This document shows, piece after piece, positions 9,929-52,955 of a stretch of DNA of 64,000 nucleotides; the first letter of the stretch is position 1, and every line of letters starts with the position of its first letter. The position numbers were made by a program, and so were the translations under genes. The stretch comes from a virus (Duplodnaviria; Heunggongvirae; Uroviricota; Caudoviricetes). Under the pieces are notes generated by a model. It did not search any database, was not told where the DNA came from, and worked only from the letters and a program-made list of their open reading frames with translations. The stretch lies in the IMG/VR virus record IMGVR_UViG_3300029732_000280. One strand, written 5' to 3'.

Positions 9929-10028
9929 AGTTTTCGCTCCTTTCCTGCCCGTTTTCTTCTCTTTGGGCAGTCACATATTCCCTCTGTTTCGTGATATTAT
10001 CAAGTAATTTCGGCGCAGAAAGACGGAG

Positions 10029-10198: not shown

Positions 10199-10375
10199 TT
10201 AGAGGATAGCGGCATTGACCAGCTATCGTGGCGTTGAAGCAGTGGACTGGTTCGGTTTCAGCCGATTGTGGAGCCTGCCCGTGGGTTATGCGACAACCAC
10301 AAGCCGAATAGATTCTTTGAATCGAACAAAAACGCTTAATGAGAGCCTTGCTACGGCAGGGCTCTTATTTTTTGG
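10199..10375 (+). ncRNA. Candidate structured 5' leader or small RNA (about 175 nt) ending in an intrinsic terminator just before the CDS. Riboswitch/attenuator-like layout, class not recognised.
   Basis: Promoter, then a region with multiple stem possibilities (GATTGTGG...CCACAAG, GATTC..GAATC), then the terminator, then RBS AAAGGAG and ATG at 10392. Confidence 0.35.
10342..10375 (+). terminator. Intrinsic terminator/attenuator inside the leader.
   Basis: AGAGCCTTGC-TACG-GCAGGGCTCT stem (one G-U) followed by TATTTTTTGG. Confidence 0.7.
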
Positions 10376-10391
10376 CAAAGGAGATGATGGC

Positions 10392-10997
10392 ATGAGTACC
10401 GATATACTATATGAAGCGGCATTAACGTGGAAAGAACTAATGCAGTTCAATTACGTTTTTACATATGGCTACAAAAAGCAGCTTCATACCATCACTCTCG
10501 CTTTCCCACCTGAGCGATTTCCGCATCTTGCAGGTTTTCAATATTTGACTGATGTCAGTCTGCCACGATTCAACCGGTCAAAAACGCTTGACATGATCCT
10601 GCGTAAAAAAATCATGCTTTCTCAGATCGAAAAAGGCTCTCAATATCAGGAAAGTGTAAAGCCCCGCCTGGAAGCATTGGTTCGCTTAAAGCAAACAATT
10701 GAACAGGACTTTATCCTCCATTCCTACATGCCGCGTTTTTATTCCTTCAGCACCCAAATACAAGCTGATTACCTGATTTCTAAAGCTACACCGCCAATTG
10801 ATTTTATCTTTATCATCCGATCAACTTCATCAGGTGACATTTCCGTTTGTGATGTTGTTTGCTGCTCTGCTTTTACACAAACAGACCGAGATTACCGTGA
10901 GAACCAGCGCCCACGAACAATCCTGAAAAAAGAACGGATTTGCGTTTCAACATCTGAAACTGTTATCTTATATGATCGGCTAACCGGACAGGAATAG
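10392..10997 (+). CDS. Hypothetical 201-aa moron protein with its own promoter, leader and terminators, sitting between the lysis cassette and the recombinases. The ORF-track start at 10215 is a TTG reading through the leader; real start is the ATG at 10392.
   Basis: RBS AAAGGAG 8 nt upstream of the ATG. Plus strand, opposite to the phage genes. No confident family match. Confidence 0.55.
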   Translation: MSTDILYEAALTWKELMQFNYVFTYGYKKQLHTITLAFPPERFPHLAGFQYLTDVSLPRFNRSKTLDMILRKKIMLSQIEKGSQYQESVKPRLEALVRLKQTIEQDFILHSYMPRFYSFSTQIQADYLISKATPPIDFIFIIRSTSSGDISVCDVVCCSAFTQTDRDYRENQRPRTILKKERICVSTSETVILYDRLTGQE

Positions 10998-23336: not shown

Positions 23337-26300
23337 TTACTTGAAGACCGAATCATCCTCGTGGATCATGCCGTTGATCTTATCGGCAACGGTCTGTGCG
23401 AGTTCATCATCGTTCCGGGCATTATAGCCGTTGACCGTGATATATACGCCACCAAGGTTGGTCGTCCGGGTGGTACCGCCTCCGGCCAGAGCCGCCTGCG
23501 GGAAATTCCAGCCAGAGCCATCGAAGTGCGGCAGGGTCAGTTCCGGCAGACTGAAGGAACTGATGCCCTCCATACCCTGCTGCACCTTTGCTGCCATCGA
23601 CCTGATCTGGCTGATTAGTCCGCCCTCGCCTTTCTTGATGCCGCCGGAAAGCAGCTTCATAAAGTCTGGCATATAGGTGTCCGCATCTGCCAGAGGTCCT
23701 TCATCCGGCACAGAGAAGTGCAGGAACGAACGGATACCGCTTGCCACACTCTTGACCGCACTGCCGACCCAGCTCACACCCTTCTTGATGCCTCCTGCAA
23801 TACCGCCAACGATATCCTTGCCCCAGCTGACTGCCGAGGAAGCCACGTTCTTGATACCGCCCCAGATGGACGATGCCACGTTGCCGATGGCAGAAGCCGC
23901 ATTGGAGATACCGTTCTTGATGGCATTTACTCCATTCGAGAATACCGAAGTGACCTTGTTCCAGATATTCGTGACTCCTTCCCGGAAGCCATCGCAGTTT
24001 TTCCAGAGAGCGGTCAGTCCAAGACCGATGCCGCCAACGGCCGCCACTGCGATACCTGCAGGACCCGCCAGACCAGCAAGTGCTGTGCCTGCGGATGCGA
24101 GGAAACCACCTGCGGAGCTTGCTACGCCTGCAAGAGCCGTACCCGCACCTGCCGCCAGACCAGATACGGCCGTGCCAACCGAGCCGAACAGTCCTGCGAT
24201 TGCGGAGCCGGCAGAACCAGCAATTCCGCCCAATGTGGAACCCACACCAGACAGAAGCCCAGAAAGACTGCCGCCTAAGCCACCGATCTTCGTCACTACA
24301 CCGGAAAGCAGCCCGCCCAGATTCGACAGGATTCCCCCACCGCTGGAGCCAAGGCTTCCCAGCTTCGAGATGATACCGGAGATTCCCTCTCCCAGACCAC
24401 CCATTTTGGAGGTCAGCCCGGAGATCAGGTTGCCAAAGTTCGACACGATCTGACCGCCGTCTGCACTGCCGATCTTCGACAGGAAACTGCCGAGGTTAGA
24501 CAGCAGACCGCCTCCGTTTTCGGAGCCAAGGACATTGCCGAGGTTCTGCAACGTACTTCCGAGGTTTCCGATGGTGTTCTTCATGGAGCCGAGCTTGTCC
24601 ACAAGACCAGTAACTGTATTGACCGTGTCACCGACTTTGTTGATGCCGCTTCCCAGGTTCTTTAGGAAGTCCGAATTGAAGGTATCGCCAAGGCTGCGGA
24701 TCGCATTCCCAAGGGAACTGGTCTGAGAACTCAGTTCTCCAATGGAATCCTTCATATCCGTAAAGCCCTGCTTCACTTCATCGCTCATACTGCCGACTGC
24801 AGTTTTGGTGATGCCCTGCAGGTCAGTCCAGAGCTGCTGGAACTGTGTTTTCAGCCCGGAAAGCCCGGTCATCAGCTGAGACTGGATACCGCTTCCCACA
24901 TCCCTTGCAGCACTGCCGACACCGCTCTGGCTTCTCTTGATCGTGGTAGCAAAACTGCCGACCACAGAATCCATCCAGTCGCCCAGAGAATCCACCGGAG
25001 TCGTGAGGTTACTGCTCATAGACCCGGCAAGCCCCTGCACAGCCTTCACCACCGACTTGACATTTTTCTTAATGCCGGTCGCCAGCAGCTTCATGAAGTC
25101 AGGCATATAGGTGTCTGCATCGGACAGAGGTCCTTCGTCCGGCACAGAGAAATGCAACAGACTTCTGACCCTGCTTGCAACATTTTCTGCCGCCGCGATC
25201 ACGGAACCAGCCGCTGCCCGGACACCTGCCGCCATCTGGGAACAGATATCTGCACCCCAGCGGTATGCCGAAGAAGCAATCGAACCGAGCGAGTTAAAGC
25301 TGCTCCTGATACTTGCAACACCAGAAGAAACCGTGCTGCGCAGGCTGGACATTGCCGAAGACACCGTGGACTTGATGCTGTTGAAAGCAGAGGTCGTAGT
25401 GGATTTCAGTGTGTTCCAGCCGCTTGTGACCGTACTACGGACAGCTGTGACAGAAGAAGTCGTAAGGGACTTGATACTATTCCATGCAGTCGTAATGACT
25501 GTTTTGATACCATTCCAGCTAGTGTTTGTCAGAGTTTTCACTGCGTTCCATGCGCTGGTCATGGACGATTTTACAGAAGCAGTCGCCGAAGTAGTCAGAG
25601 ACTTAATTCCGTTCCATGCTGTGGTGATAACGCTCTTGATTCCGTTCCAGCTGGTCGTTGTCAGCGACTTCACTGCATTCCATGCACTGGTCATGGACGT
25701 TTTCACTGCTACTGTTGCGGAAATCACATTAGATTTCACCGCCGCAAAGCTGGTTTGGATGGTGGTCTTGATGCTGTTCCATGTGCTGGTGGTACTGGTC
25801 GTAATGGAACTCCATGCGGATCTCATCGCGGCACTTACACCTGCCGTTCCGGTTCTTGCCGTCTGGCTGATGGCTGTCCAGCTCTTACTGTATGCCTGCT
25901 CCACTCCCCTCATGGAGTTGGTGATGGAGGTAGACAGCGTGGTGGACAGGTTCTCCGCCGCCGCAGTCACAAGGCTGGTGTTGGTCGTGATACCGTTTGC
26001 CAGACCCTGCATGAAGTCCGGCATCCAGCTTTCCATATCAGCCAGAGGTCCCTCATCCGGCACAGAGAAATGCAGGAAGGAACGGATACGGTCCGCCACT
26101 CCCGATACGGCACTTGCCACATCCTGAATCCTCGACTGGATACCCGACACAATGTTGCCAATCATGTCAGAGCCCCACGAGAATGCCTGTCCAGCCAGCC
26201 CCTTGATAAAGGAGACTGCACTGTTAAAGCCGTTCGTGATGGTGGTCTTGATACCGGAAATCGTAGAGGAAATCCCGGATTTCATCGAGTTAAAGGCTGT

Positions 26301-29246
26301 GGTCGCTGCGCTCTTGATGCTGTTACTGAGGGACGATACCGTGGATTTCATGGCATTCCAGCCGGAAGAAACCACCGATTTGATTCCATTTACCACACCA
26401 GAGATCTTGCTGCTGATGGCTCTCCAGATGGAAGAAACCGTGGACTGGATCGCAGAAAGGACTGTCGAAATGACCGTCTTGATCGCATTCCATGCCGTGC
26501 TCATCCTAGTCTGGATGCCAGTCAGCAGCGGAGACAGGAAGGATACAATGGCGTTCCATACAGTTGTCACTGCGGTCTGGATTGCAGTCAGCACCGTGGA
26601 GATGGCTGTCTGGATTGCCGACCAAACCGTAGAGAAAGTCGTCTGCAGTCCAGTCAGGAGCGGAGTCACAAAGGCGACGATAGCGTTCCAGATGGAAGTG
26701 ATCTTCGTCTGAATTGCGGTCAGTGCCACGCCGATCAGAATCTGGATCGCCTGCCAGATGGTCTCAAACAGATATTTGAACGCATCCAGCAAAGGCTTGA
26801 TGGTGTTGTAGATGCCGTTCCACACCGAAGTGATCGTCGTACTGATGGTGTTCATGACCGTAGAGATCGCGGTCGAGATCGCCGTCCACACAGTTGTCAC
26901 CGTGGTATGGATCGTATTCAGCACAGACGAAACTGCTGTGGAAATGGCCGTCCAGATGGTGCTGAAGGTCGTCTGGATACTCGTAAGGACAGTCGTAAAA
27001 AAGCTCGAAACCGCAGTGAACACAGTCGTCGCCACACTCTGGATAGCAGAAACTGTGTTTGAGAAGAAGCTGCTGATTCCGTTCCACACGGTCTCGAAGA
27101 AGTTCTTGATACTGCCCCAGACAGTCTGCCAGTCCGTACCGAACAGACCAAGGAACACATCCAGCGCACTCTTCAGAGCAGTAAGGGTCGTGGAGAAAAT
27201 GGACTTCACGCCATCCCAGATACTGGAGAAGATGCCCTTTGCCGCTTCCCATGCGCCGCTCCAGTTGCCGGAGAACACATTGGAAAAGACATCAAATAGA
27301 CCGAGCAGTGTATCCAGAACCGTACTCAATACCGTAGCCACAATCTGGAACGCTCCCTCAAACAGCGGTGCAAGCACCTGACAGAAGCCATCCCATACTG
27401 CCTTCAGTACCTCAGTGACATCCTTAAAATCAAAGCCCAGCCCATTGATCCGCTGTGTCAGCTGGTCGCAGAAGCCTTTCACCTTGGAAACGATGTCGTT
27501 CCAGATGCCGGTAATGGCAGTACGGAACTCCTCGTTGGTGTTCCAGAGATTCATGAACGACGCCACCAGTGTACCGACGACCGCCACCACTGCTACGACC
27601 GGGCCGGACAGACCACCCAGAACCACACCCAGCTTGCTGAACACACCGCTGGCACTGCCCACATGGGTGATAAGAAGCCGGACACCCTTTGCAAGAGAAC
27701 TGAATCCCCGCATCGCTGTGCCGACGGTCGATATGGTCTTGCCAAGCACAATGAGCAGCGGACCAATGGAGGCTGCCAGGAGTCCGATCTTGATGATCGT
27801 TTCCCTGGTACTTTCATCCATGCTGTTGAGCTTGTCCACGAACTGCTGCACGGCAGATACGATCTTGCGGATGGTGGGCATCAGAATGTCGCCAAAAGAA
27901 ATAGCCAGCTCCTCCAGCTGAGATTTCAGGATGGTGAGCTGACCATTTAAATTGTCCTGCATGGTCTCTGCCATGCTCTCGGATGCGCCATCGCAGTTTT
28001 CAATGGCTCCACGCAGTTTGTTGATGTCTGTCTCGCTGGAATTCATCAGGGCAAGGAAGCCGGACATGGCATTCTTGCCAACCAGTGCCTCTGCATTGGA
28101 TGCTTTTTCAGATTCAGTCAAGCCAGAAAATGCTACACGGCAGTCTGCAAGGATATCGTTCAGGCTCCTCATACTGCCATCTGCATTGCTGGTGGCAATC
28201 GTAACTTCACCGATGTTCTTGCCCGCAAAGGTCACTTCACCGGAAAGGTTGTTCATGATGGTACGAAGGGACGTACCAGCCTGCGAAGCCTTGATACCAC
28301 TGTTTGCCATCAGACCGATGGCTTCTGCGGTATCCTCTGCCGAGAACCCCAGCGCACCGGCGATAGGCGCGCAGTACTTGAACGTTTCGCCCATCAAGCT
28401 GACATTGGTGTTCGCATTGGAAGAAGCGGCTGCAAGGATATCTGCAAAATGCCCAGAATCCGCAGCGGATAAGCCGAACGCGGTAAGGGCATCGGTAACA
28501 ATATCTGAAGTCGTAGCGAGGTCTTCACCCGAAGCGGCCGCGAGGTTCATGATGCCCTCGATGCCGTTCAGCATGTCAGAAGTCTTCCATCCGGCCATGG
28601 CCATGTATTCCATCGCTGAAGCTGCCTCGGATGCAGAGAACTTGGTCTTTGCACCCATCTCACGGGCTTTCGCACGGAGCTGATCAAAGTCATCCCCGGT
28701 CGCACCGGAAATGGCAGAGACCTTACTCATCTCGGAATCGAAATCGGCTGCGGTCTTCACTGCTGCCGTACCAAGACCCGTTACAGTGGCAGTCACCGGC
28801 AGGAACTTCTTACCGACATTCTCCACAGAAGATCCGATGTTCTGGAGCTTTTCTCCGGCTTCATCGATTTTGGCAAGAGTCGCATTGGTAGTAGCCGCCT
28901 GATCCTGTAAGGATCGCAGATTCTGTTCGGTCTCCACGATCTCACGCTGAAGAGCATCGTACTGCTGCTGGGTGATCTCACCGTTGGCAAGCTGCTCATT
29001 GGCCTGCTGTGCGGCAGTTTTCAAAGTTGCCAGCTTTTCCTTAGTGGCTTCAATGGCATCCTTCAGCATCTTCTGCTTCTGGACAACCAGTTCTGTATTG
29101 GAGGGGTCCAGTTTCAGGAGTTTGTTGACATCCTTCAGTCCTGACTGCGTCCCCTTAATTGACTTGTTTACACTTTCCAGTGCTTTGGAGAGCTTTGTGG
29201 TATCGCCGCCGATCTCAACGGTGATGCCCTGGATTCTGGATGCCAT
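23337..29246 (-). CDS. Tail tape measure protein (1969 aa) with three internal copies of a ~35-aa motif and very long Thr/Ser/Ala-rich repeat stretches.
   Basis: AMEYMAMAGWKTSDMLNGIEGIMNLAAASGEDLATTSD is a TP901-type TMP core. The motif RSFLHFSVPDEGPLAD..YMPDFM occurs three times. Start is ATG 29246 with RBS AAGGAGGTG; the track start at 29291 has no RBS. Confidence 0.9.
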   Translation of the reverse strand: MASRIQGITVEIGGDTTKLSKALESVNKSIKGTQSGLKDVNKLLKLDPSNTELVVQKQKMLKDAIEATKEKLATLKTAAQQANEQLANGEITQQQYDALQREIVETEQNLRSLQDQAATTNATLAKIDEAGEKLQNIGSSVENVGKKFLPVTATVTGLGTAAVKTAADFDSEMSKVSAISGATGDDFDQLRAKAREMGAKTKFSASEAASAMEYMAMAGWKTSDMLNGIEGIMNLAAASGEDLATTSDIVTDALTAFGLSAADSGHFADILAAASSNANTNVSLMGETFKYCAPIAGALGFSAEDTAEAIGLMANSGIKASQAGTSLRTIMNNLSGEVTFAGKNIGEVTIATSNADGSMRSLNDILADCRVAFSGLTESEKASNAEALVGKNAMSGFLALMNSSETDINKLRGAIENCDGASESMAETMQDNLNGQLTILKSQLEELAISFGDILMPTIRKIVSAVQQFVDKLNSMDESTRETIIKIGLLAASIGPLLIVLGKTISTVGTAMRGFSSLAKGVRLLITHVGSASGVFSKLGVVLGGLSGPVVAVVAVVGTLVASFMNLWNTNEEFRTAITGIWNDIVSKVKGFCDQLTQRINGLGFDFKDVTEVLKAVWDGFCQVLAPLFEGAFQIVATVLSTVLDTLLGLFDVFSNVFSGNWSGAWEAAKGIFSSIWDGVKSIFSTTLTALKSALDVFLGLFGTDWQTVWGSIKNFFETVWNGISSFFSNTVSAIQSVATTVFTAVSSFFTTVLTSIQTTFSTIWTAISTAVSSVLNTIHTTVTTVWTAISTAISTVMNTISTTITSVWNGIYNTIKPLLDAFKYLFETIWQAIQILIGVALTAIQTKITSIWNAIVAFVTPLLTGLQTTFSTVWSAIQTAISTVLTAIQTAVTTVWNAIVSFLSPLLTGIQTRMSTAWNAIKTVISTVLSAIQSTVSSIWRAISSKISGVVNGIKSVVSSGWNAMKSTVSSLSNSIKSAATTAFNSMKSGISSTISGIKTTITNGFNSAVSFIKGLAGQAFSWGSDMIGNIVSGIQSRIQDVASAVSGVADRIRSFLHFSVPDEGPLADMESWMPDFMQGLANGITTNTSLVTAAAENLSTTLSTSITNSMRGVEQAYSKSWTAISQTARTGTAGVSAAMRSAWSSITTSTTSTWNSIKTTIQTSFAAVKSNVISATVAVKTSMTSAWNAVKSLTTTSWNGIKSVITTAWNGIKSLTTSATASVKSSMTSAWNAVKTLTNTSWNGIKTVITTAWNSIKSLTTSSVTAVRSTVTSGWNTLKSTTTSAFNSIKSTVSSAMSSLRSTVSSGVASIRSSFNSLGSIASSAYRWGADICSQMAAGVRAAAGSVIAAAENVASRVRSLLHFSVPDEGPLSDADTYMPDFMKLLATGIKKNVKSVVKAVQGLAGSMSSNLTTPVDSLGDWMDSVVGSFATTIKRSQSGVGSAARDVGSGIQSQLMTGLSGLKTQFQQLWTDLQGITKTAVGSMSDEVKQGFTDMKDSIGELSSQTSSLGNAIRSLGDTFNSDFLKNLGSGINKVGDTVNTVTGLVDKLGSMKNTIGNLGSTLQNLGNVLGSENGGGLLSNLGSFLSKIGSADGGQIVSNFGNLISGLTSKMGGLGEGISGIISKLGSLGSSGGGILSNLGGLLSGVVTKIGGLGGSLSGLLSGVGSTLGGIAGSAGSAIAGLFGSVGTAVSGLAAGAGTALAGVASSAGGFLASAGTALAGLAGPAGIAVAAVGGIGLGLTALWKNCDGFREGVTNIWNKVTSVFSNGVNAIKNGISNAASAIGNVASSIWGGIKNVASSAVSWGKDIVGGIAGGIKKGVSWVGSAVKSVASGIRSFLHFSVPDEGPLADADTYMPDFMKLLSGGIKKGEGGLISQIRSMAAKVQQGMEGISSFSLPELTLPHFDGSGWNFPQAALAGGGTTRTTNLGGVYITVNGYNARNDDELAQTVADKINGMIHEDDSVFK

Positions 29247-29304
29247 TTGCGTAACCACCTCCTTGCAGGCATGAAAAAAGCCCATCTGCACGGGACAGAC
29301 AGGC

Positions 29305-29360
29305 TAAAAATGGGTATAAAAATGGGTATAAAAATACCCCGTCAGATTTCTCCAACGGGG
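29305..29360 (-). terminator. Intrinsic terminator closing the AbiE cassette. Contains a duplicated 12-mer (TGGGTATAAAAA x2 on the plus strand).
   Basis: Minus-strand CCCCGTTGGAGAAATCTGACGGGG hairpin followed by TATTTTTATACCCATTTTTATACCCATTTTT. Confidence 0.75.
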
Positions 29361-29370
29361 TTGCTACCGA

Positions 29371-30210
29371 TTATTGAATTATACTCCATAAGAGCATTGT
29401 GCTCTCCATAATATCCTCATAGCTGATATCAGTAGCATACGGATATTTCTTCTGGTAGGACTTCCAAAGTGTATGTAACTGTGCGTCATCACTGACGGCA
29501 GCCATAATTTTGGGTGCTTCCTCTTTCAGATTTTCGGTGCTTCTTTTCTTACAGGTTGCCTCAAATGCCTTTTTCAGCACATCAGCATCGATGTCCTGCT
29601 CGTAAATAGAAAGCAGGGTCTTGATATCATAGAAGTCTCTCATTCGGGTATTCAAAAGACCTCTTGCAAGGACCGTCTGAAGTTTTTCTGCCAGAATTGT
29701 TTCCAAATTATACGACCAAAGGCTGATGGAACGGTCATCCAAGAGCAATTTATAGTTGTACTCGATTGCTCTTGGCGTGATAACATCTCCTGTAGAAATA
29801 TCAATCTTCATCGGTGTAACGAGTTTTCCCATCACGGCATTCATAGTAAACCGAATACCCGGATATTCCATTTCATCCATGATATTGGAAACTTCCTTAA
29901 CCTCAAAGGTCACTCCATCGCCAAGGTCGATGTCCTTGATTTCATCCACAATCCGTCTGGCATCTTCTGCCGACAGATTCTGATTTTTAATACTCGTATC
30001 GATATCCATCGTGGACCGCAATGCTACGCCAACCATTGCTGTCACCAGCATTCCGCCTTTGATGATAAAATTATCTTTATACTGCGAATTGGCAACTCTC
30101 TCAAGGAAACGCTCCATCATATAAATTCGCATGAGCGTTCTGGCATCTGCCTTGTTTTCCTTTGCCACATTCTTAATTCTTCCCTTAACCTGTTCAGGTG
30201 TCAGCTGCAT
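29371..30210 (-). CDS. abiEii: AbiEii-type nucleotidyltransferase toxin (type IV TA / abortive infection, DUF1814).
   Basis: FIIKGGMLVTAMVGVALRSTMDIDTS matches the GG..L....R.T.DID nucleotidyltransferase motif of AbiEii/AbiGii. Start is 1-2 nt after the AbiEi stop. Confidence 0.8.
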   Translation of the reverse strand: MQLTPEQVKGRIKNVAKENKADARTLMRIYMMERFLERVANSQYKDNFIIKGGMLVTAMVGVALRSTMDIDTSIKNQNLSAEDARRIVDEIKDIDLGDGVTFEVKEVSNIMDEMEYPGIRFTMNAVMGKLVTPMKIDISTGDVITPRAIEYNYKLLLDDRSISLWSYNLETILAEKLQTVLARGLLNTRMRDFYDIKTLLSIYEQDIDADVLKKAFEATCKKRSTENLKEEAPKIMAAVSDDAQLHTLWKSYQKKYPYATDISYEDIMESTMLLWSIIQ

Positions 30211-30211
30211 T

Positions 30212-30796
30212 TTACAATAATACCCCCATATATCTGCGGATCACATTATCAACCCGAAACAGCTTTGCATATTCCATGAGTCGATTTAGGTCCTTGTTTC
30301 TTCTGGAAACATATGTCTTCAGAACGGAATTGAAATCCTGTGCTTCAATACTGCTCCGGCTTCTCATCAGATCACAAATCGTTCGTTCCAAGTCATACAT
30401 TGGAATCATGTTCCCATCGTTGTCTTTCACAATGATCTTTCCGACATCCAGTAATTCCCGTTTTACCGTATATACTTTACAACTTCCATCCGCTATAAGT
30501 CGATGTGCATTGTAACCGCTGTATATGGTAAGTGTGTGGACAAACGGTTCTCTGTCTGTCAGACCATGATAATAAAAGGCCTCATCATGTGAAAAAACAG
30601 CATTCGGGCATCTCTTATGAAGCACATATAACTCATCGACCCAATCCGATCCCGTAGAATACACACCACGGCTGACCGGCTCCAATCCGTTTTCTCGAAC
30701 ATATTTGTAAAATTTAAATTTTGAAATTCCAGATTTTCCCGCGATTCTCGGCGTAAGGTAATCATGATTTTGAACTAATCTTGTCATCTCATTCAT
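30212..30796 (-). CDS. abiEi: AbiEi-type antitoxin/transcriptional autoregulator (N-terminal AbiEi_4 wHTH plus C-terminal AbiEi domain).
   Basis: GISKFKFYKYVRENGLEPVSRGVY is AbiEi_4-like. Gene order AbiEi then AbiEii. Operator palindromes lie in its promoter. Confidence 0.75.
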   Translation of the reverse strand: MNEMTRLVQNHDYLTPRIAGKSGISKFKFYKYVRENGLEPVSRGVYSTGSDWVDELYVLHKRCPNAVFSHDEAFYYHGLTDREPFVHTLTIYSGYNAHRLIADGSCKVYTVKRELLDVGKIIVKDNDGNMIPMYDLERTICDLMRSRSSIEAQDFNSVLKTYVSRRNKDLNRLMEYAKLFRVDNVIRRYMGVLL

Positions 30797-30813
30797 AGAA
30801 TCACCATCCTTCC

Positions 30814-30841
30814 GTGCTTATATTGTAATCGAAATAAGCAC
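30814..30841 (-). promoter_or_regulatory. AbiE promoter (TTGACT-17-TACAAT on the minus strand, about 30822..30852) overlapping inverted repeat IR1 (GTGCTTAT-N12-ATAAGCAC), a putative AbiEi operator.
   Basis: Perfect 8-bp arms. Near-consensus promoter hexamers seen directly. Confidence 0.6.
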
Positions 30842-30860
30842 GATAGTCAAGTAAAATCAA

Positions 30861-30900
30861 ACGAGCGTGCTTATTTCACATTTAATATATGCACGCTCGT
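30861..30900. promoter_or_regulatory. Inverted repeat IR2 (ACGAGCGTGC-N20-GCACGCTCGT), second putative AbiEi operator. GTGCTTAT half-site recurs inside.
   Basis: Perfect 10-bp arms seen directly upstream of the AbiE promoter. Confidence 0.5.
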
Positions 30901-30914
30901 CGAGTTTTATTCTG

Positions 30915-31456
30915 TCAAAATTTGTCAAAATCAGCTTGCGAGGCCAGCTCTTTGTACGGATAGTCGTCGTTCTGCCGTTCCGTGAACATATCATTGACCA
31001 ACCCGATGGTCAGCAGGTCGAGGTCGGCGATGCTGATACCGAGCTGTACACAGCGCAGCAGAAAGAGCGGGGTGGTCATTTCCCGCTCACTTTTGCGAGG
31101 TTTTTTCTGGATTCCACCTCGGTCTGCACATTCAGACCCCACAGTTCGATCAGCTGGGGCAGGATCTGATAAATGGAGAAGGTGTTGAACTGGTCCAGGA
31201 ACTCCTCCGGGCTGTCCGGCACCTTTGCCGGGTCTGCATGACGGGCCATCAGCCATGCCAGGTCCTCGAACATTTCCAGACTGAACAGGTCGAGGTTGGA
31301 ATTGTCCTCATCGTTCTCTCCCACGCTCTTTTCCAGCTGGCGCAGGTCTTTGTAAATGTCACGGCCAAACTTGATGCGGTACAGGCGGGGTACAGCGGCA
31401 CTTGCCTTAAAGGTGACTTCCTTGCCATCGATCTCGATTTTCTTCGTAACTGCCAT
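30915..31456 (-). CDS. Tail assembly chaperone GT fusion made by a -1 programmed frameshift at 31100..31106.
   Basis: The -1 frame after A_AAA_AAC continues as KKPRKSEREMTTPLFLLRCVQLGISIADLDLLTIGLVNDMF... to the stop at 30915. Confidence 0.6.
31076..31456 (-). CDS. Tail assembly chaperone G (gpG-like).
   Basis: Position between major tail protein and tape measure. KFGRDIYKDLRQLE motif. Slippery site near its 3' end. Confidence 0.7.
   Translation of the reverse strand: MAVTKKIEIDGKEVTFKASAAVPRLYRIKFGRDIYKDLRQLEKSVGENDEDNSNLDLFSLEMFEDLAWLMARHADPAKVPDSPEEFLDQFNTFSIYQILPQLIELWGLNVQTEVESRKNLAKVSGK
31100..31106 (-). other. -1 programmed ribosomal frameshift heptamer A_AAA_AAC (zero frame R-K-N).
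   Basis: Codon phasing verified against the gpG reading frame. Canonical X_XXY_YYZ slippery sequence. Confidence 0.65.
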
Positions 31457-31515
31457 AATCGTAATCCTCCATAAATTTCATGTAAAATTGGCAGAGCCGA
31501 AGCCCTGCCATATAT
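31457..31515 (-). repeat. Downstream copy of a ~50-bp direct repeat flanking the SPFH gene (hairpin GCAGGGCTTCGGCTCTGC, then TTACAT, then GGAGGATTACGATTATG).
   Basis: Compare with 32352..32405. Contains a terminator-like hairpin plus the RBS/start context of gpG. Confidence 0.55.
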
Positions 31516-31523
31516 CGTGTTTC

Positions 31524-32351
31524 TTACTCTGCCGAGTCAATGCTGACCAGTGCATTACCGCCGCTCACAGTGGGCAGCTTGCCATCCCACTTCTGAACCT
31601 TCTGGTAATCGATCAGCGTATCGGACAGGCTTTCTGCCAGTTTGCGGTTTGCCTCTGCCTGTGCGTCTGCGGCAATGGAAGTTTTCTGTGCTTCCGCCTC
31701 TGCATTGGTGATCGCCACCTGCTTATCCGCTTCTGCCTTGGCAATGGCAGCTTCATTCTCAATCTTCTGCTTATCTGCGTTCTGCTGTGCAATGGACTTC
31801 TGCTGGATGGCTTCGTTATAGGCATCCTCGAAATTCATGTCGTTGATGACGACCTTGTTTACGAACACAACGTCCTCACCATATTTCTGCACAATGGACT
31901 CTGCCAGCTTCTGCTGTGCCAGAGGCTCGATCTTGGTGCGGTTTGTCACCTCATTGGGGGCAAGTTCAGCCATCGCAGACTTAATGGCCGATGCCACCAG
32001 CTCGTCACCGACCAGACTCTTGATGTCGGACACATTCGCATACAGCCATGCACTCTTCTCAGGAAGCACCTGATAGGTCACGATCACATCAGCGGCATAC
32101 ACCGGAGTCTTGTCGGAGGCTTCGCCCCAGACCTGCGCTTCGATGTGCTTATCCTGCTGCTTGTTGTTGACCTTGTGGATGCTCTGCACAAAGGGAATGC
32201 AGAAGTTGAGCTTGCCGCTCTGGATGGTGGTTTCCTGGATCTGACCGAAGCTGGTCTTCACGCCCGTGTAACCGGTGGGGATGATGTGGAACGAGCAGAC
32301 AGCCAGCACCAGAACGATGATCACTGCGAACAAAGGAAAAATCTTCTTCAT
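31524..32351 (-). CDS. SPFH/band-7 (prohibitin/HflC-like) membrane protein, a moron inserted between the major tail protein and gpG.
   Basis: N-terminal TM helix. PTGYTGVKTSFGQIQETTIQSGKLNFCIPFVQSIHKV is an SPFH signature. Ala/Glu/Gln-rich coiled-coil C-terminus. Confidence 0.8.
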   Translation of the reverse strand: MKKIFPLFAVIIVLVLAVCSFHIIPTGYTGVKTSFGQIQETTIQSGKLNFCIPFVQSIHKVNNKQQDKHIEAQVWGEASDKTPVYAADVIVTYQVLPEKSAWLYANVSDIKSLVGDELVASAIKSAMAELAPNEVTNRTKIEPLAQQKLAESIVQKYGEDVVFVNKVVINDMNFEDAYNEAIQQKSIAQQNADKQKIENEAAIAKAEADKQVAITNAEAEAQKTSIAADAQAEANRKLAESLSDTLIDYQKVQKWDGKLPTVSGGNALVSIDSAE

Positions 32352-32405
32352 AATCGTATACCTCTTTATAATAATGTAAGCAGAGCCAAAGCCCTGCGGT
32401 GTGTG
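32352..32405 (-). repeat. Upstream copy of the SPFH-flanking direct repeat (hairpin GCAGGGCTTTGGCTCTGC, then TTACAT, then AGAGGTATACGATTATG).
   Basis: Seen directly. 18 of 19 hairpin identity and a shared GAGGwwTACGATTATG start context. Confidence 0.55.
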
Positions 32406-32413
32406 CCGGTCAC

Positions 32414-33028
32414 TTAGCCCTGCGGCTCCTCGGTATGACCGGTATCTTCGGTGTCCACAGCTTCTGCCTGCGGCTCATAGACCGCATCGTACCACTTGTT
32501 ATAGACATCATCGGTGGTGTTGGTACCGGTCTTGGCCTTGACATAACCGTTTGCCAGAGGGGTTGACTGCAGGTTCAGGGTGTCCGTCTTGACTTCCTTG
32601 CTGTCCTCGTTGGTCTCACCCTCGATGGACGGACGGCTTGCCACACAGTTGTACAGCACATGACGGATGTGGCGCTGGTCGCCATCGAACTCGAACAGGA
32701 AGGCGAAATGCTCCAGTTCCACATTGGCGTTCTCAGCAAGCACGCCGTTGCCATCCAGTTCCTCGTGCATGATGTCCGTGAGGAAACTCTCCGGGATCAG
32801 CGCGATCTCCAGATCACCCTCGTAGCCGGAGTTGTTATTCACGACATAATAGGCGATATTGTCCGCATAGAACGGCTCGATCTCACCGTTAGCATCCATA
32901 GAAAGACTGACTGCACCGGGGATGCGGACCGGCTTTGCATAGGTGACACTGCCATCTTCGTCAAAGGTTGCCTTAGCATAATGGCAGTTTTTCAGGCCAA
33001 ATTTGACCTTATTGCTTTTCTTCGACAT
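32414..33028 (-). CDS. Major tail protein (TP901-1/phi13-like).
   Basis: KFGLKNCHYAKATFDEDGS N-terminus typical of siphovirus major tail proteins. Position before gpG and tape measure. Confidence 0.8.
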   Translation of the reverse strand: MSKKSNKVKFGLKNCHYAKATFDEDGSVTYAKPVRIPGAVSLSMDANGEIEPFYADNIAYYVVNNNSGYEGDLEIALIPESFLTDIMHEELDGNGVLAENANVELEHFAFLFEFDGDQRHIRHVLYNCVASRPSIEGETNEDSKEVKTDTLNLQSTPLANGYVKAKTGTNTTDDVYNKWYDAVYEPQAEAVDTEDTGHTEEPQG

Positions 33029-33062
33029 AGTGTTCCTCCCATAAAAATATCCTGCATGAGCA

Positions 33063-33380
33063 TCACACGGTCAGCTCATACAGGACTTCATACATCTTTT
33101 CGGTTTCGATCCAGACTTCACTTTTCTCGTAGTAGAGTTCATGTGCAGTCAGGACTTCTTCAATATTTGCTTCCATATCCGGGTCTTTGTAATCGGTGTA
33201 CACCTCAATGTCCAGCCGGTTGAAATGATGGTACACAAGGTTATCCGCACCAAAGTTCTCGGCTTTCGGATACAGGAAGCAGATAAACGGTGGATCAGGA
33301 CTCTCCCCTTCTGCGAAATGGTCATACGCATAGGGAAGCCCCATCTCCTCCACCAGAGCTTTTACTTCTTCGTGGGTCAT
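33063..33380 (-). CDS. Tail terminator-like protein (position-based).
   Basis: 105 aa, located between the tail-completion protein and the major tail protein. Confidence 0.35.
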   Translation of the reverse strand: MTHEEVKALVEEMGLPYAYDHFAEGESPDPPFICFLYPKAENFGADNLVYHHFNRLDIEVYTDYKDPDMEANIEEVLTAHELYYEKSEVWIETEKMYEVLYELTV

Positions 33381-33389
33381 AGACTCCTC

Positions 33390-33767
33390 CTATTTCAGTG
33401 CCTTTTCGATAAGGGATTGGAGCTGCTCAATACCAGCCTGTTCTGCCGGAGCGATATGCGGTCTTCCTGCCACCCGGCCACCGCCGCGCTTGGCATGGCC
33501 TTTTTCCAGCAGATGTGCCAACTGGTAGCGGTTCTTGGAATGCACCACCATCTGAAAGCTCTGGCTGGATTCCGACTGTTTGGTCGCCACCCAGCTTCCT
33601 TTGTATGCTCCCGTTCTGGACGGTGCGCCGGACTGAATCTGCTCCTTGACGGTCTTGGCTGATTTTCTCACAGCCTTCTTGACCTCGGTGGAGGCAAGGG
33701 TCGCATACTCTTTCAGGCCTTCATTGATGGCATCTGCCATCTCATCGATGCTGACGGTTCTGCTCAT
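33390..33767 (-). CDS. HK97 gp10-family tail-completion / head-tail joining protein.
   Basis: Size, position and basic C-terminus. Overlaps the next gene. Confidence 0.45.
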   Translation of the reverse strand: MSRTVSIDEMADAINEGLKEYATLASTEVKKAVRKSAKTVKEQIQSGAPSRTGAYKGSWVATKQSESSQSFQMVVHSKNRYQLAHLLEKGHAKRGGGRVAGRPHIAPAEQAGIEQLQSLIEKALK

Positions 33768-34098
33768 CCGGCTGCCTCCTTTCCAAACGGCAATGAATCT
33801 TCAGGATCTTCTTCTGATAGTTCATCGGGTCAACGGATTCGATATTGTAGAGCTGCTCCCGGAAGCGGATACGGTAACCAGTGGAAGTCAATCCTCTCGT
33901 CTCACTGCACCAGCGAACCGTAAACACCACGCTCTTCTGTTCGGCTGTGACCTCACCCTCGTCTTCCTGCGCCTGATAGGTCGAAGCGTAGGCAAAGCAG
34001 GTGAAATATTCCTCCCATGTGTTCCGATGGTTTCCGACCTTATCGGTCACGACCGTGCTTTTCTCGATCGTGATCCGCTCATTCAGTTTCTCGATCAT
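33742..34098 (-). CDS. Head closure / head-tail adaptor protein.
   Basis: Position after the gp6-like connector. ATGA coupling at 34098. Confidence 0.5.
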   Translation of the reverse strand: MIEKLNERITIEKSTVVTDKVGNHRNTWEEYFTCFAYASTYQAQEDEGEVTAEQKSVVFTVRWCSETRGLTSTGYRIRFREQLYNIESVDPMNYQKKILKIHCRLERRQPDEQNRQHR

Positions 34099-49444: not shown

Positions 49445-51694
49445 TTATTCTTCCAGACCTGCACACCACGCGATGCCGGCCAGAACAAAGAATGCGTTGG
49501 CTAAGCAAATGCCGTTGCCCCAGATACGGTACTCTGCCGAATCCGTATATGGGTCAGCCAGCCATTTCCGGATCTGCTTCTCCGTCTTCGGCTTCTTGGC
49601 ATGGGTCACGATCTTACGGTGTGTTTCAAACACATCCGCCCAGAACGCCAGATCTTCCTCGGTTGGGTTTTCCGTTCCGAGATCTCTGCACCACCAGTCA
49701 GGGAATCCCTGCAGTCTGGCACACTCGGTCGGTGTCAAACGGCGGACGGTATAGGTCACAGGTGCGGGCTGTGCTTCCGGATTGTCGATGACCAGACGGT
49801 CATTGAAGGCATCCTGCCCGTTGAAGCCGCTGGGATGTGCCCCGGTTACCACGGTTCCCATGACACCCTCGTTCAGATGCGGCACCGGTGCGATAGTGGT
49901 TGGGTCTTTGTAGTCCCGTGCCATCAGGGTCGGTGCGACTTCTTTTGCCACCTGCATATAGGAGCCGGTGGTCATGGCATACACATCCTCCGGTGCGCAG
50001 ACTGCATGGCGGTCAGTGGCATCCAGTGTAAAGCAGACATCCTCATTGACGCCATCCCCCTGCGGACCGTTCTCATCCTTGCGGCCGATCATGTTGCCCT
50101 GCAGGACGAAGGTCTGCATCTGGTCACTCCGGGTCGCCATCAAAGCGCCGGATTTGCCATGCAGATCGATCAGCTCATTGCGCTGGTTCACATGGAACGC
50201 AGTCATCTCTTCCGGCTGTGCCACAAAGGTCTGCTGCTTCATCCCCGGCTCTGCTGCCAGTGCCGCTGACTTCTCTCCCAGATCCCTGACTTCATCCCTC
50301 TGATTCTGGGTAAAGGCGACCGGCTCTACCACACAGATGCCGCCCTGATTGCAGGTCGGGTCACCACCGCTGCGGTCCAGTGTCCGGGAGGTCTCCGCTT
50401 CATAGAAACCGCTATGCGGATTGTCGGACATCATGGAGTGGCTGGCTTTGGAGCAGACACCATAGCATTTCGGAACGAACAGTGTCTGGTCGTTATTGCA
50501 GCCGAGTGTGGCAGATTTTTCTTCCTGCCAAATGGCTCCCTTGCCGCCACCCTCGCAACCGGAACGGATCTTCAGCGTGACTGCCGGGGAGTTTTCAACT
50601 TCTTTCACCGGACTTTCCACTGAATTTTCAACAGCGTCTATGACCATCGGGACATTACCGCCACCTGTACCGCACCGGCTTGTCAGTGTCTGCACCTTAC
50701 CATCCTCGGAAATCTTCACCCGGCTGTCAGCAGGATGATTTTCCAGTGCGATGGCGGCAGGCACAACACCAGCCCGGAGGGTCGGTGAGCGTTCCTCCTC
50801 GTATCCGATGCTTCTGGCATCTGCCGAATGCTCGGTACAGAAACCGGCAGCTTCTAGAACACACGGCTGATGTCCATGCTCCTCTGCCCGGAGGGTACCG
50901 GTCACATCCTGGGAAACATCCATCTGCTTACCGCCCTGGTCGTTCAGACAGATCCGCCCTCCTGCTCCGCTGAAGCCTGCCTCTCCAGTGCCGCTTTCAG
51001 CACCGGCGGCAGCTCTTTGCCACGCATGGAAGCCCTCCGCAGAATACCGAGACACGCCTTCGGACTCAAATAGTACCTTTGGGGCACTCTGGTCTGCAAA
51101 ATCTGCGACAAGGTAGATACGTTTTCTTCTTTGGGGAACGCCCCACCATTGTGCATCAAGAACTCGATACGCGACGCTCCATCCGTCTCCCACGTAGTAG
51201 TCAGCGTCGGGCCATCCTTTCTTCTCAGGCGCAGGCACCGAGGCGGACGGTTCTTTAACACCGATGACTGCTTCGAGGACTGCTTTGAAGTCCTGCCCTT
51301 TGTTTGAGGAGAAGGCCCCTGGCACATTCTCCCACACGATAAATCTTGGTTTTTCTCCATTGGTCTTACACCTCATTTCTTTCACGATTCGGATTGCTTC
51401 GTAAAACAGACTGGACCGTGAACCATCCAGACCGTCCCGCTTACCGGCGATGGACATATCCTGACAGGGACTGCCAAAGGTGATGATGTCCACAGGCGGC
51501 AGGTCTGCGCCGCTGATGGCGGATACATCTCCGTAGTGCCTCACCTGTGGCAGACGTTTGGTCGTGACCCGGATGGCAAAGGGCTCGATCTCGCTGCTCC
51601 ACAGCGGAGTGATCTGCCCGGTCAACAGACCGCCCAATGGAAAACCCCCGGAGCCATCAAAGAGGCTGCCGAGGGTCAACTGTTTATTCTCCAT
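49445..51694 (-). CDS. DNA (cytosine-5)-methyltransferase, 749 aa, with an unusually long variable region (multispecific-like).
   Basis: Motif I LFDGSGGF, motif IV GSPCQDMS, motif VI FIVWENVPG, motif VIII QRRKRIYLV, C-terminal RLQGFPDWW. About 450 aa lie between motifs VIII and IX. Confidence 0.9.
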   Translation of the reverse strand: MENKQLTLGSLFDGSGGFPLGGLLTGQITPLWSSEIEPFAIRVTTKRLPQVRHYGDVSAISGADLPPVDIITFGSPCQDMSIAGKRDGLDGSRSSLFYEAIRIVKEMRCKTNGEKPRFIVWENVPGAFSSNKGQDFKAVLEAVIGVKEPSASVPAPEKKGWPDADYYVGDGWSVAYRVLDAQWWGVPQRRKRIYLVADFADQSAPKVLFESEGVSRYSAEGFHAWQRAAAGAESGTGEAGFSGAGGRICLNDQGGKQMDVSQDVTGTLRAEEHGHQPCVLEAAGFCTEHSADARSIGYEEERSPTLRAGVVPAAIALENHPADSRVKISEDGKVQTLTSRCGTGGGNVPMVIDAVENSVESPVKEVENSPAVTLKIRSGCEGGGKGAIWQEEKSATLGCNNDQTLFVPKCYGVCSKASHSMMSDNPHSGFYEAETSRTLDRSGGDPTCNQGGICVVEPVAFTQNQRDEVRDLGEKSAALAAEPGMKQQTFVAQPEEMTAFHVNQRNELIDLHGKSGALMATRSDQMQTFVLQGNMIGRKDENGPQGDGVNEDVCFTLDATDRHAVCAPEDVYAMTTGSYMQVAKEVAPTLMARDYKDPTTIAPVPHLNEGVMGTVVTGAHPSGFNGQDAFNDRLVIDNPEAQPAPVTYTVRRLTPTECARLQGFPDWWCRDLGTENPTEEDLAFWADVFETHRKIVTHAKKPKTEKQIRKWLADPYTDSAEYRIWGNGICLANAFFVLAGIAWCAGLEE

Positions 51695-52955
51695 CAGCGA
51701 CCTCCCTTTCCGGCTCGAAGGTTGCCACTTCCTCGAACTTCAGCTTCTGGCCGTCACGGACAACAAACACATCATCGTAGTGACCATCGCTGTGTTCGAT
51801 GTACCGCTTCACAATCACATCCACGAACTTCGGGTCCAGCTCGATACCCCGGCACACACGGTCGGTCTCTTCACAGGCGATCAGGGTCGAGCCGCTGCCG
51901 AGGAACGGATCGAGGACGATGCCGTTGGTCATAGTGGAATTGCGGATCGGATAGCTCATCAGGCCAATGGGCTTCATGGTCGGGTGGTCCTTGTTGGACT
52001 TCGGCCGGTCATACTCCCATATGGTCGTCTGCTTCCGGTCGGAATACCACTGGTGCTTCCCCTTTTGCTTCCAGCCGTAAAGACACGGTTCGTGCTGCCA
52101 CTGGTAAGGACTGCGGCCCAGCACCAGCGCATTCTTCTTCCAGATACAGCACCCGGACAGGTAGAACCCTGCATCCTTGAATGCCTTTCTAAAGTTCAGC
52201 CCTTCCGTATCTGCATGGAAGATGTAGATGGAGCCGTCGTCTGCAAGATGGCCGTACATCTGCTGGAAAGCTGCCAGAAGGAACTGGTAGAATTCCGAAT
52301 CGCCCATGTTGTCATTCATGATCTTACCGGCAGTCTCTTCCACATCCACGTTATAAGGGGGATCGGAAAGGACCAGATTTGCCTTGGTTCCGTCCATCAG
52401 GGTGTCGTAGCATTCTGCTTTGGTGGAATCCCCGCACAGAACGATGTGCTTTCCCAGATGCCAGAGGTCACCATCTTTGGAGAAGCATGGCTGCTTCAGC
52501 TCGGATTCCACATCGAAGTCATCTTCCTTGACCTCTTTGCTGTGGACTTTGTTGAACAGCGTCTCAATCTCCGGCGGCTCAAAGCCGGTCTTACCAAGGT
52601 CGAAGTTGGAATCCTCGATGTCCTTCAAAAGATCAGCCAGCAGAGAATCATCCCATGCACCCGTAATCTTATTGAGCGCAATGTTCAGGGCTTTCTCCCT
52701 GGTCTTGTCGATGTCCACCACCGCACAAGGCACTTCGGTGTAGCCCAGCTCCATCGCTACGGTCAGTCTCTGGTGGCCGCCGATGATCGTCATATCGGCA
52801 TTGACCACCAAAGGATCTGCGAACCCGAACTCCGTGATGGAGTTCTTGATCTTCTCGTACTCTTTATCCCCCGGCTTCAGCTTTTTCCGGGGATTGTATG
52901 CGGCCGGCTTGAGTACGGACACCGGCAGCATCTTCAGTTCAGCAGTCGCTTTCAT
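51684..52955 (-). CDS. ParB-like N-terminal nuclease domain fused to a DPPY-class (N6-adenine/N4-cytosine) DNA methyltransferase.
   Basis: IIGGHQRLTVAMELG is a ParB/Srx motif. VLSDPPYNV is MTase motif IV. FLGSGSTLIA is the AdoMet-binding motif. Confidence 0.85.
   Translation of the reverse strand: MKATAELKMLPVSVLKPAAYNPRKKLKPGDKEYEKIKNSITEFGFADPLVVNADMTIIGGHQRLTVAMELGYTEVPCAVVDIDKTREKALNIALNKITGAWDDSLLADLLKDIEDSNFDLGKTGFEPPEIETLFNKVHSKEVKEDDFDVESELKQPCFSKDGDLWHLGKHIVLCGDSTKAECYDTLMDGTKANLVLSDPPYNVDVEETAGKIMNDNMGDSEFYQFLLAAFQQMYGHLADDGSIYIFHADTEGLNFRKAFKDAGFYLSGCCIWKKNALVLGRSPYQWQHEPCLYGWKQKGKHQWYSDRKQTTIWEYDRPKSNKDHPTMKPIGLMSYPIRNSTMTNGIVLDPFLGSGSTLIACEETDRVCRGIELDPKFVDVIVKRYIEHSDGHYDDVFVVRDGQKLKFEEVATFEPEREVADGE

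Follow-up and report, generated by a model that had tools for sequence, protein, structure and literature searches.

We examined a 64-kb stretch of viral DNA (hereafter the window; IMG/VR record IMGVR_UViG_3300029732_000280, Caudoviricetes) and find that its tail operon most probably carries a horizontally acquired moron, a complete AbiE toxin–antitoxin and abortive-infection system, in a temperate siphovirus of gut Clostridia. The cassette consists of the genes abiEi and abiEii and has the G/GT tail chaperone on one side and the tape measure gene on the other (Table 1). Its GC content is 40–42%, against 52–57% in the flanks. The large serine recombinases, endolysin, head, tail and replication genes that the window also holds identify the carrier as a temperate siphovirus.

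The antitoxin gene comes first in the operon, and the open reading frame listing places a single nucleotide between the abiEi stop codon and the abiEii ATG. AbiEii matches the DUF1814 profile PF08843 over model positions 1–236 of 238 and the PADLOC AbiEii model at 1.5e-99, and its residues 16–277 align with Streptococcus agalactiae AbiEii (PDB 9HLO_B, 1.1e-48), which places it among the DUF1814/COG2253 nucleotidyltransferases. Residues 10–190 of the 194-residue AbiEi align with S. agalactiae AbiEi (PDB 6Y8Q, 3.2e-18) across both the winged-helix and the C-terminal domains, the two-domain arrangement of COG5340 antitoxins. The assignment of this protein to the AbiEi family rests on that similarity and on its PADLOC match; PHROG gives no match for it and holds no AbiEi family. 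The AbiEi/AbiEii identity had been proposed in a first-pass annotation of this DNA, and both the full-length structural similarity and the DUF1814 profile bear it out.

The putative toxin also retains the motif residues. G52/G53, R65, T67, D69, D71, K176, R183 and D195 of the window's AbiEii align, in the same order, with the motif I–IV residues GG, R63, T65, D67, D69, K173, R180 and D192 of the S. agalactiae protein, so that the nucleotidyltransferase motifs (GG, R..DxD, K..R, D) and the phospho-acceptor threonine are all conserved. Toxicity of S. agalactiae AbiEii requires the first motif I glycine, R63, D67, D69, K173, R180 and D192, and the protein is still toxic when the second motif I glycine alone is substituted (PMC3985639); T65 is its phospho-acceptor (bioRxiv 10.64898/2026.01.19.700257). 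The ratio of nonsynonymous to synonymous substitution (dN/dS) is 0.03–0.05 against relatives at the same site, with synonymous sites near saturation (pS 0.71–0.84), and 0.02–0.04 against one closer relative. Taken gene by gene, it is 0.02–0.05 for abiEi and 0.04 for abiEii where it can be estimated. Full-length reading frames, intact motif residues and low dN/dS together indicate that, judged from its sequence, the pair is a complete, intact AbiE system under strong purifying selection.

Comparison of related junctions identifies the cassette as an insertion. We kept 80 IMG/VR loci of 333 confirmed matches, all with a G protein at least 98% identical to that of the window, and both edges of the junction could be read in 61. 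AbiEi with AbiEii occupies seven of these. DUF3990/DUF3791 modules are found in 19 loci, ParE/Phd in 16, Abi_2 in nine, AbiEi alone followed by other modules in four, ATPase_2 with DUF234 in three, and a YoeB pair and a Fic gene in one each. The remaining locus, the close relative L027, is empty, with just 76 nt from the T stop codon to the tape measure ATG. Bacterial genomes in which G is 66–81% identical supply a further 23 empty junctions (182–360 nt from the end of G to the tape measure start), and 34 others, with G up to 83% identical, have gaps of 729–3242 nt; the related junctions group into 15 gap clusters. Pfam and PADLOC name several of the alternative cargos as established or candidate defence systems: AbiD (4.7e-57), SoFic (1.3e-118), PDC-M13 (DUF3990/DUF3791) and PDC-S27 (ATPase_2 with DUF234). 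DUF6036 also occurs among them. Cargo types other than AbiE have a GC content of 37–45%. In two divergent phages, L090 and L091, the AbiE found at this junction has diverged correspondingly, and in L092 the same operon with both of its palindromes lies beside serine recombinase and flavodoxin genes.

These comparisons agree with the earlier proposal of a moron at an insertion hotspot. The cassette interrupts genes that are adjacent in empty-slot relatives and differs from them in GC content, as does a moron in the sense of Juhala and Hendrix, and it has its own predicted promoter (30850..30822) and terminator hairpin (T1, 29361..29336). By its gene content, the junction is an exchangeable cargo slot that is either empty or filled with other defence or toxin–antitoxin modules. 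A plasmid origin was considered and set aside, since a megablast search of the cassette against PLSDB returned nothing. A megablast search for close cultured relatives among deposited phages, with 5.6 kb around the cassette as query, returned nothing beyond a short fragment and a tape-measure match at 74%.

Table 1. Positions of the cassette, its control elements and the flanking tail genes in the window.
Feature	Position	Strand	Details
Tape measure gene	23337-29264	-	Ribosome-binding site (RBS) AAGGAGGTG (29264-29256), start ATG 29246; phrog_1272 1.9e-169
T2, terminator-like backbone hairpin	29273-29305	-	AGCCTGTCTG-N7-CAGATGGGCT and T-run; hairpin 29305..29279, -15.4 kcal/mol, z -3.3
Tandem 12-mer duplication	29305-29328	.	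TAAAAATGGGTA, two copies on the + strand
T1, terminator at cassette end	29326-29361	-	ACCCCGTTGGAGAAATCTGACGGGGT then AUUUUUAUAC; hairpin 29361..29336, -19.6 kcal/mol, z -4.3
abiEii, nucleotidyltransferase toxin by homology (DUF1814)	29371-30210	-	279 amino acids; Pfam PF08843 6.3e-42
abiEi, antitoxin and autoregulator by homology	30212-30796	-	194 amino acids; PADLOC AbiEi 7.9e-63
IR1 (inverted repeat), perfect palindrome	30813-30842	.	CGTGCTTAT-N12-ATAAGCACG, 9-nt arms; encloses -10 box and likely transcription start
abiE promoter (predicted)	30822-30850	-	-35 TTGACT (30850-30845), 17-nt spacer, -10 TACAAT (30827-30822); score 10/12
IR2, candidate upstream AbiEi operator, left slot border	30861-30900	.	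ACGAGCGTGCaTAT-N12-ATAAGCACGCTCGT; hairpin with U-rich flanks
-1 slippery heptamer and T extension of GT fusion	30915-31106	-	A_AAA_AAC (31106-31100), stop at 30915; phrog_3033 4e-23
G, tail assembly chaperone	31076-31456	-	126 amino acids; assigned by synteny and frameshift site; phrog_709 1e-39, function unnamed
Major tail protein	32414-33028		phrog_88 1e-57; Pfam tail tube

The control region of the operon is conserved together with the antitoxin gene. TTGACT-17-TACAAT is the highest-ranking promoter-like match in a 4-kb scan, and among 23 distinct regions upstream of AbiEi homologues (54–99% protein identity) it is kept at a fixed distance from the AbiEi start codon. We regard the promoter as credible because this arrangement recurs across relatives, not because of the scan. 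The half-sites of the overlapping palindrome IR1 are invariant down to 65% AbiEi identity while the spacer varies, and upstream of the 54% homologue they are changed symmetrically to CATGCTTAT..ATAAGCATG. Invariant half-sites, a variable spacer and a symmetric change form the pattern of a dimeric operator placed over the -10 box and start site. When the consensus GTGCTTAT-N12-ATAAGCAC was sought with up to three mismatches, the IR1 and IR2 sites were the only ones in the 64 kb, against a chance expectation of 0.13 and with two or more occurrences in none of 100 shuffled sequences. AbiEi proteins bind inverted repeats over their own promoters (PMC7319586, PMC3985639), and IR1 is very probably the predicted AbiEi operator. 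All the sequence features named in the first-pass annotation are present, and its near-consensus promoter with the overlapping perfect repeat is conserved upstream of AbiEi homologues down to the 54% relative.

The role of the second palindrome, IR2, is less clear. First listed as ACGAGCGTGC-N20-GCACGCTCGT, it is better taken as 14-nt arms with one mismatch around a 12-nt spacer; it repeats the IR1 half-site (one mismatch) and the N12 spacing, and its centre lies 53 bp upstream of that of IR1. We surveyed 50 related loci without AbiEi, picked via the G gene and hence unbiased toward the motif, and found an IR2-type palindrome directly 3′ of the T stop codon in 46. Lone AbiEi genes, which lack abiEii, carry IR1 only. 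IR2 is therefore not tied to AbiEi, and its role as an operator is doubtful because the palindrome is also present where AbiEi is absent. The earlier suggestion of AbiEi autoregulation through two repeats stands for IR1 as a very probable, sequence-predicted operator and is doubtful for IR2. In all 46 palindromes of the AbiEi-less relatives, 16 core nucleotides are free of mismatches. This core is identical to the IR1 half-sites and invariant over 19 distinct IR2-type variants, among which differences occur at five of the 12 spacer positions and at most positions of the outer stem.

One possibility, somewhat less likely than not, is that IR2 is not an AbiEi operator at all but a hairpin at the border of the slot, which would separate the GT gene from the cargo by terminating or insulating transcription. 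In the window its RNA form has U-rich flanks and a folding energy of -21.6 kcal/mol (z -4.4). AbiE-less loci mostly carry their cargo on the opposite strand, a T-run follows the palindrome on that strand, and the palindrome and the cargo's own hairpin together make a tandem terminator (-40.5 kcal/mol, z -7.2). The position of the palindrome after the T stop codon in AbiEi-less relatives fits a border element, as does its absence from lone AbiEi genes. A strand-specific terminator would account for retention of the hairpin but not for the invariance of the half-sites; a constant core beside a variable spacer and outer stem is more suggestive of a protein that recognises the sequence than of a plain hairpin. 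In L092, L097 and L220, where AbiE is not in a tail setting, IR2 is found with it as well, and the operator and border roles could coexist. The IR2-type palindrome might be left over from an ancestral AbiE border, or might be bound by AbiEi acting in trans.

An exact-pattern scan of IMG/VR for the palindrome gave matches in 108 loci. Seventy lie after GT without AbiEi, 11 are the IR1 of AbiE in the same phage group, three lie 5′ of AbiEi in other settings, and 24 have no AbiEi downstream and no G upstream. Four of these 24 are near a tape measure start and probably belong to the same phage group, their G gene lying past the edge of the locus, and about 20 are in unrelated contexts. Within the window, the half-sites are absent elsewhere save for one 8-mer, and tblastn at E < 0.1 detected no AbiEi paralogue. 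A phage-wide regulator that binds the palindrome was considered and rejected for the window, as the motif occurs nowhere else in the 64 kb. An Rfam E-value search of positions 27000–34000 returned a single chance-level match, which falls on IR2 (16.9 bits; gathering score 290.8). Separately, a conserved segment of about 120 nt (…GAAGGTGGCCCGAAGGTCATCTTCCCGGTCTCGGACCTCGCAAGGTTACCGAAACCTGAT…), ending in a strong hairpin and U-run, is common to different opposite-strand cargo types. It lies just 3′ of the palindrome in L041, L023, L038, L026 and L056 and 5′ of the Abi_2 gene in L048. Rfam gives no match for it, and it could serve as a leader or a small RNA.

At its other end the cassette closes with T1, which is common to other same-strand cargo types (L001, L065 and L071). 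Because different cargos share it, and because it has compensatory changes in L071, T1 behaves as a cassette terminator. The claim that the operon has its own terminator holds for this hairpin; the hairpin directly 5′ of the tape measure gene is a second, terminator-like structure, T2, which had been missed and which belongs to the phage backbone. T2 adjoins the tape measure RBS and is also present in the empty L027. Of 28 junction variants found in occupied relatives, 27 have a hairpin and T-run at its position, several with unrelated sequence, and the T2 stem is kept while the loop varies. Many distant empty-slot relatives have a hairpin and T-run at this position and others have none. Its presence in L027 and in the 27 variants indicates that read-through before the tape measure gene characterises this phage group as a whole and was not brought about by AbiE.

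The right-hand boundary also had to be moved. Alignments of relatives by tblastn begin at residues 1–5 of the ATG 29246 reading, mostly at residue 1, so this ATG is the most likely tape measure start, in place of GTG 29291 and a lower cassette boundary at 29292. The duplicated 12-mer between T1 and T2 had been offered as a cryptic promoter for the tape measure gene. Two copies occur in the window only; 14 other loci (nine with complete AbiE, two with divergent AbiE, two with lone AbiEi and one with the ATPase) have none or one. A functional cryptic promoter is unlikely since the duplication is private to the window, and we rejected it; the repeat looks like a private slippage event.

Some occupied slots hold an intact abiEi without abiEii (L001, L032, L065, L079 and L103). 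These lone genes are under purifying selection (dN/dS 0.05–0.09) and are followed by ParE/Phd, or by a helix-turn-helix gene and a DUF6036 nucleotidyltransferase. The lone abiEi of L001 and L032 is followed by the initial ~13 nt of abiEii and then by a degenerate second copy of the 3′ end of the T gene, which points to stacking of cargo by recombination at that sequence. The L032 slot also contains, at about 8080–9965 and directly 5′ of the tape measure RBS, a group II intron (RF02003, RF00029) with a 429-residue reverse transcriptase. Invariant half-sites in AbiEi-less phages and purifying selection on lone AbiEi raise the idea that the junction is a structured dock for defence cassettes, with the palindrome on the left and the terminator hairpin on the right, at which AbiEi acts in trans between related phages. 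We consider this unlikely. If it were true, AbiEi would be an antitoxin-type counter-defence against resident AbiE prophages or, alternatively, would obstruct a rival phage's transcription on the way into the tape measure gene of that rival.

In the model that we favour, that of a moron-borne AbiE system, a sigma-70-type promoter (TTGACT-17-TACAAT) would produce a bicistronic abiEi–abiEii mRNA in the lysogen, ending at T1. AbiEi, a winged-helix protein, would bind IR1 over the -10 box and start site and so repress the operon. It may also bind IR2, which at 53 bp upstream, about five helical turns, would present the same face of the DNA as IR1. The C-terminal antitoxin domain of AbiEi would keep AbiEii silent; the model for this is S. 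agalactiae AbiEi, which induces autophosphorylation of the threonine that aligns with T67. Infection by a foreign phage would free AbiEii to transfer nucleotides to RNA (related MenT toxins modify tRNA acceptor ends), translation would stop, and the infected cell would yield no phage, protecting the lysogen population and with it the prophage. The same pair could also penalise loss of the prophage. Late transcripts would have to pass IR2, T1 and T2 before they reach the tape measure gene. Expression from the prophage, binding of AbiEi to IR1, toxicity of AbiEii, the trigger and the anti-phage phenotype are steps that we infer by analogy with characterised systems.

Several observations count against this model. 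AbiEi has no Pfam match at E ≤ 0.01, including to the AbiEi_4 profile put forward in the first-pass annotation, and none in NCBIfam. The promoter scan as a whole is within chance (nine sites against 5.0 ± 2.3 expected), and the IR2-type palindrome is found in nearly all of the surveyed relatives that lack AbiEi. The carrier phage would also need some means of escaping its own AbiE on induction. When placed in E. coli, the S. agalactiae AbiE operon did not protect against 32 coliphages (bioRxiv 10.64898/2026.01.19.700257), and an abortive-infection phenotype is therefore not to be assumed from homology. This last result also favours the main rival, which is compatible with the same anatomy: that the pair is chiefly an addiction module that punishes prophage loss and not an anti-phage system. 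AbiE stabilises plasmids and an integrative conjugative element (PMC3985639, PMC11062541), and several of the alternative cargos are classical toxin–antitoxin pairs (ParE/Phd, YoeB). Other cargos of the slot, however, are recognised or candidate defence systems (AbiD, SoFic, PDC-M13 and PDC-S27), and lactococcal AbiE is an abortive-infection system (bioRxiv 10.64898/2026.01.19.700257). We judge a predominantly addictive role to be somewhat unlikely; the two roles are not exclusive.

Two further explanations fare much worse. The cassette is dispensable, as relatives without it attest, and could therefore be an inactive remnant that is passively carried. Yet both reading frames are full length, every motif residue is in place, dN/dS is 0.02–0.05 despite near-saturated synonymous change, and promoter and operator are conserved, which makes decay very improbable. 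That the AbiE proteins are conserved tail-assembly or structural components of the phage group is scarcely credible: the position within the tail gene block is its sole support, and it is contradicted by the empty junctions in one close and 23 distant relatives, by unrelated cargo in others, by the foreign GC content and by the same operon beside serine recombinases and a flavodoxin gene in L092. Related phages that have the slot empty or otherwise filled likewise remove the objection, foreseen at the outset, that these genes might be structural.

The surrounding tail genes fit the assignment of the junction. G and T overlap between the tail tube and tape measure genes with a predicted -1 frameshift, as expected for a G/GT pair: in the G frame, A_AAA_AAC is the sole X_XXY_YYZ heptamer of canonical form, and from it the -1 frame stays open to 30915. 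The PHROGs that match G and T have no functional name, and Pfam and NCBIfam gave no named match for either. Between the major tail protein and G lies an SPFH/Band-7 gene (31524-32351, - strand; Pfam 1.1e-16, phrog_200 'lipoprotein') with a terminator-like hairpin 3′ of it at 31510..31489 and no PADLOC match. The gene is missing in L036 and L054 and truncated in L006, L038, L044 and L059–L062, and because of this variation its position looks like a second moron slot of the tail operon. Elsewhere in the window, tandem large serine recombinases of 766 and 786 amino acids are encoded at 5233-7533 and 7568-9928 (- strand), a drum RNA (RF02958, 91.9 bits; gathering score 43) lies at 10229-10340 (+ strand) between serine recombinase and endolysin genes, and 49445-52955 (- strand) holds adjoining genes for a C5 and an N6/N4 DNA methylase, of which the second carries a fused ParB-like domain. 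L048 has an HDV-like ribozyme at 10359-10429 (+ strand; RF02682 HDV-F-prausnitzii, 75.6 bits) that is not present in the window; it lies ~2.5 kb 3′ of the tape measure start, probably within the tape measure gene. Cultured isolates of Blautia, Clostridium fessum and Faecalibacterium intestinale (L098–L102) harbour essentially the same phage in integrated form, with G at least 98% identical and the first 250 tape measure residues 98–99% identical. That these hosts come from different bacterial families suggests a phage whose host range is unusually broad or one that was transferred very recently.

Lactococcal AbiE is the phenotypic prototype of AbiE systems. The window's cassette resembles the S. 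agalactiae system (6Y8Q, 9HLO) in its bicistronic, antitoxin-first order, in the DUF1814 motifs I–IV with the threonine, in AbiEi along its full length, and in inverted repeats over a promoter with a 17-nt spacer. The similarity is distant, and the aligned AbiEi residues agree only partly. The S. agalactiae genes overlap by 4 nt whereas those of the window are 1 nt apart, and the window's cassette lies in a phage tail operon, unlike its streptococcal counterpart. The operators also differ: that of S. agalactiae consists of two 23-bp repeats 3 bp apart (PMC7319586), whereas the window has two N12 palindromes with 9-nt half-sites, 53 bp apart. The AbiE homologue Rv2827c/Rv2826c of Mycobacterium tuberculosis (MenA4/MenT4-type) has two pairs of inverted repeats with a gap of ~13 bp within each (PMC7319586), and the window's operator layout is closer to these paired repeats than to the S. 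agalactiae arrangement. The mycobacterial system, compared here by description, is chromosomal, its repeats are 23 bp long, its pairs are 4 bp apart and its binding is negatively cooperative (PMC7319586).

The closest precedent for the location is HK97 gene 15, the first described moron, which lies between the tail chaperone and tape measure genes and encodes a superinfection exclusion protein that excludes other phages from the lysogen (PMC3594210). It shares with the window's cassette the junction, a foreign GC content, and a promoter and terminator of its own (PMC3594210). The HK97 product is a small inner-membrane protein of an E. coli lambdoid phage and blocks DNA entry, whereas the cargo of the window is a two-gene toxin–antitoxin system. 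Our literature search for a defence hotspot at the chaperone/tape-measure junction found only this precedent. In the defence hotspots known from temperate phages and from satellites, such as P2 and P4, a fixed position of the backbone likewise holds many alternative defence cassettes, as at the window's junction. The slot described here differs from these in lying inside a tail operon and in its host group, the gut Clostridia.

The cassette is thus a good example of a known phenomenon and no new kind of system. To our knowledge, AbiE systems are widespread yet seldom described on phages, and only 16 deposited phage records encode a relative of this AbiEii, all at less than 42% identity. Here the classic moron junction of a temperate phage, one abundant in human-gut metagenomes, holds a complete AbiE operon, and much defence and toxin–antitoxin cargo is exchanged at that junction. 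What most deserves following is the cargo slot, together with the orphan palindrome and the lone AbiEi genes. The related loci form a natural series of near-isogenic phages in which the effect of AbiE on the lysogen, the swapping of cargo and the tolerance of the tail genes for terminators ahead of the tape measure gene may be followed.

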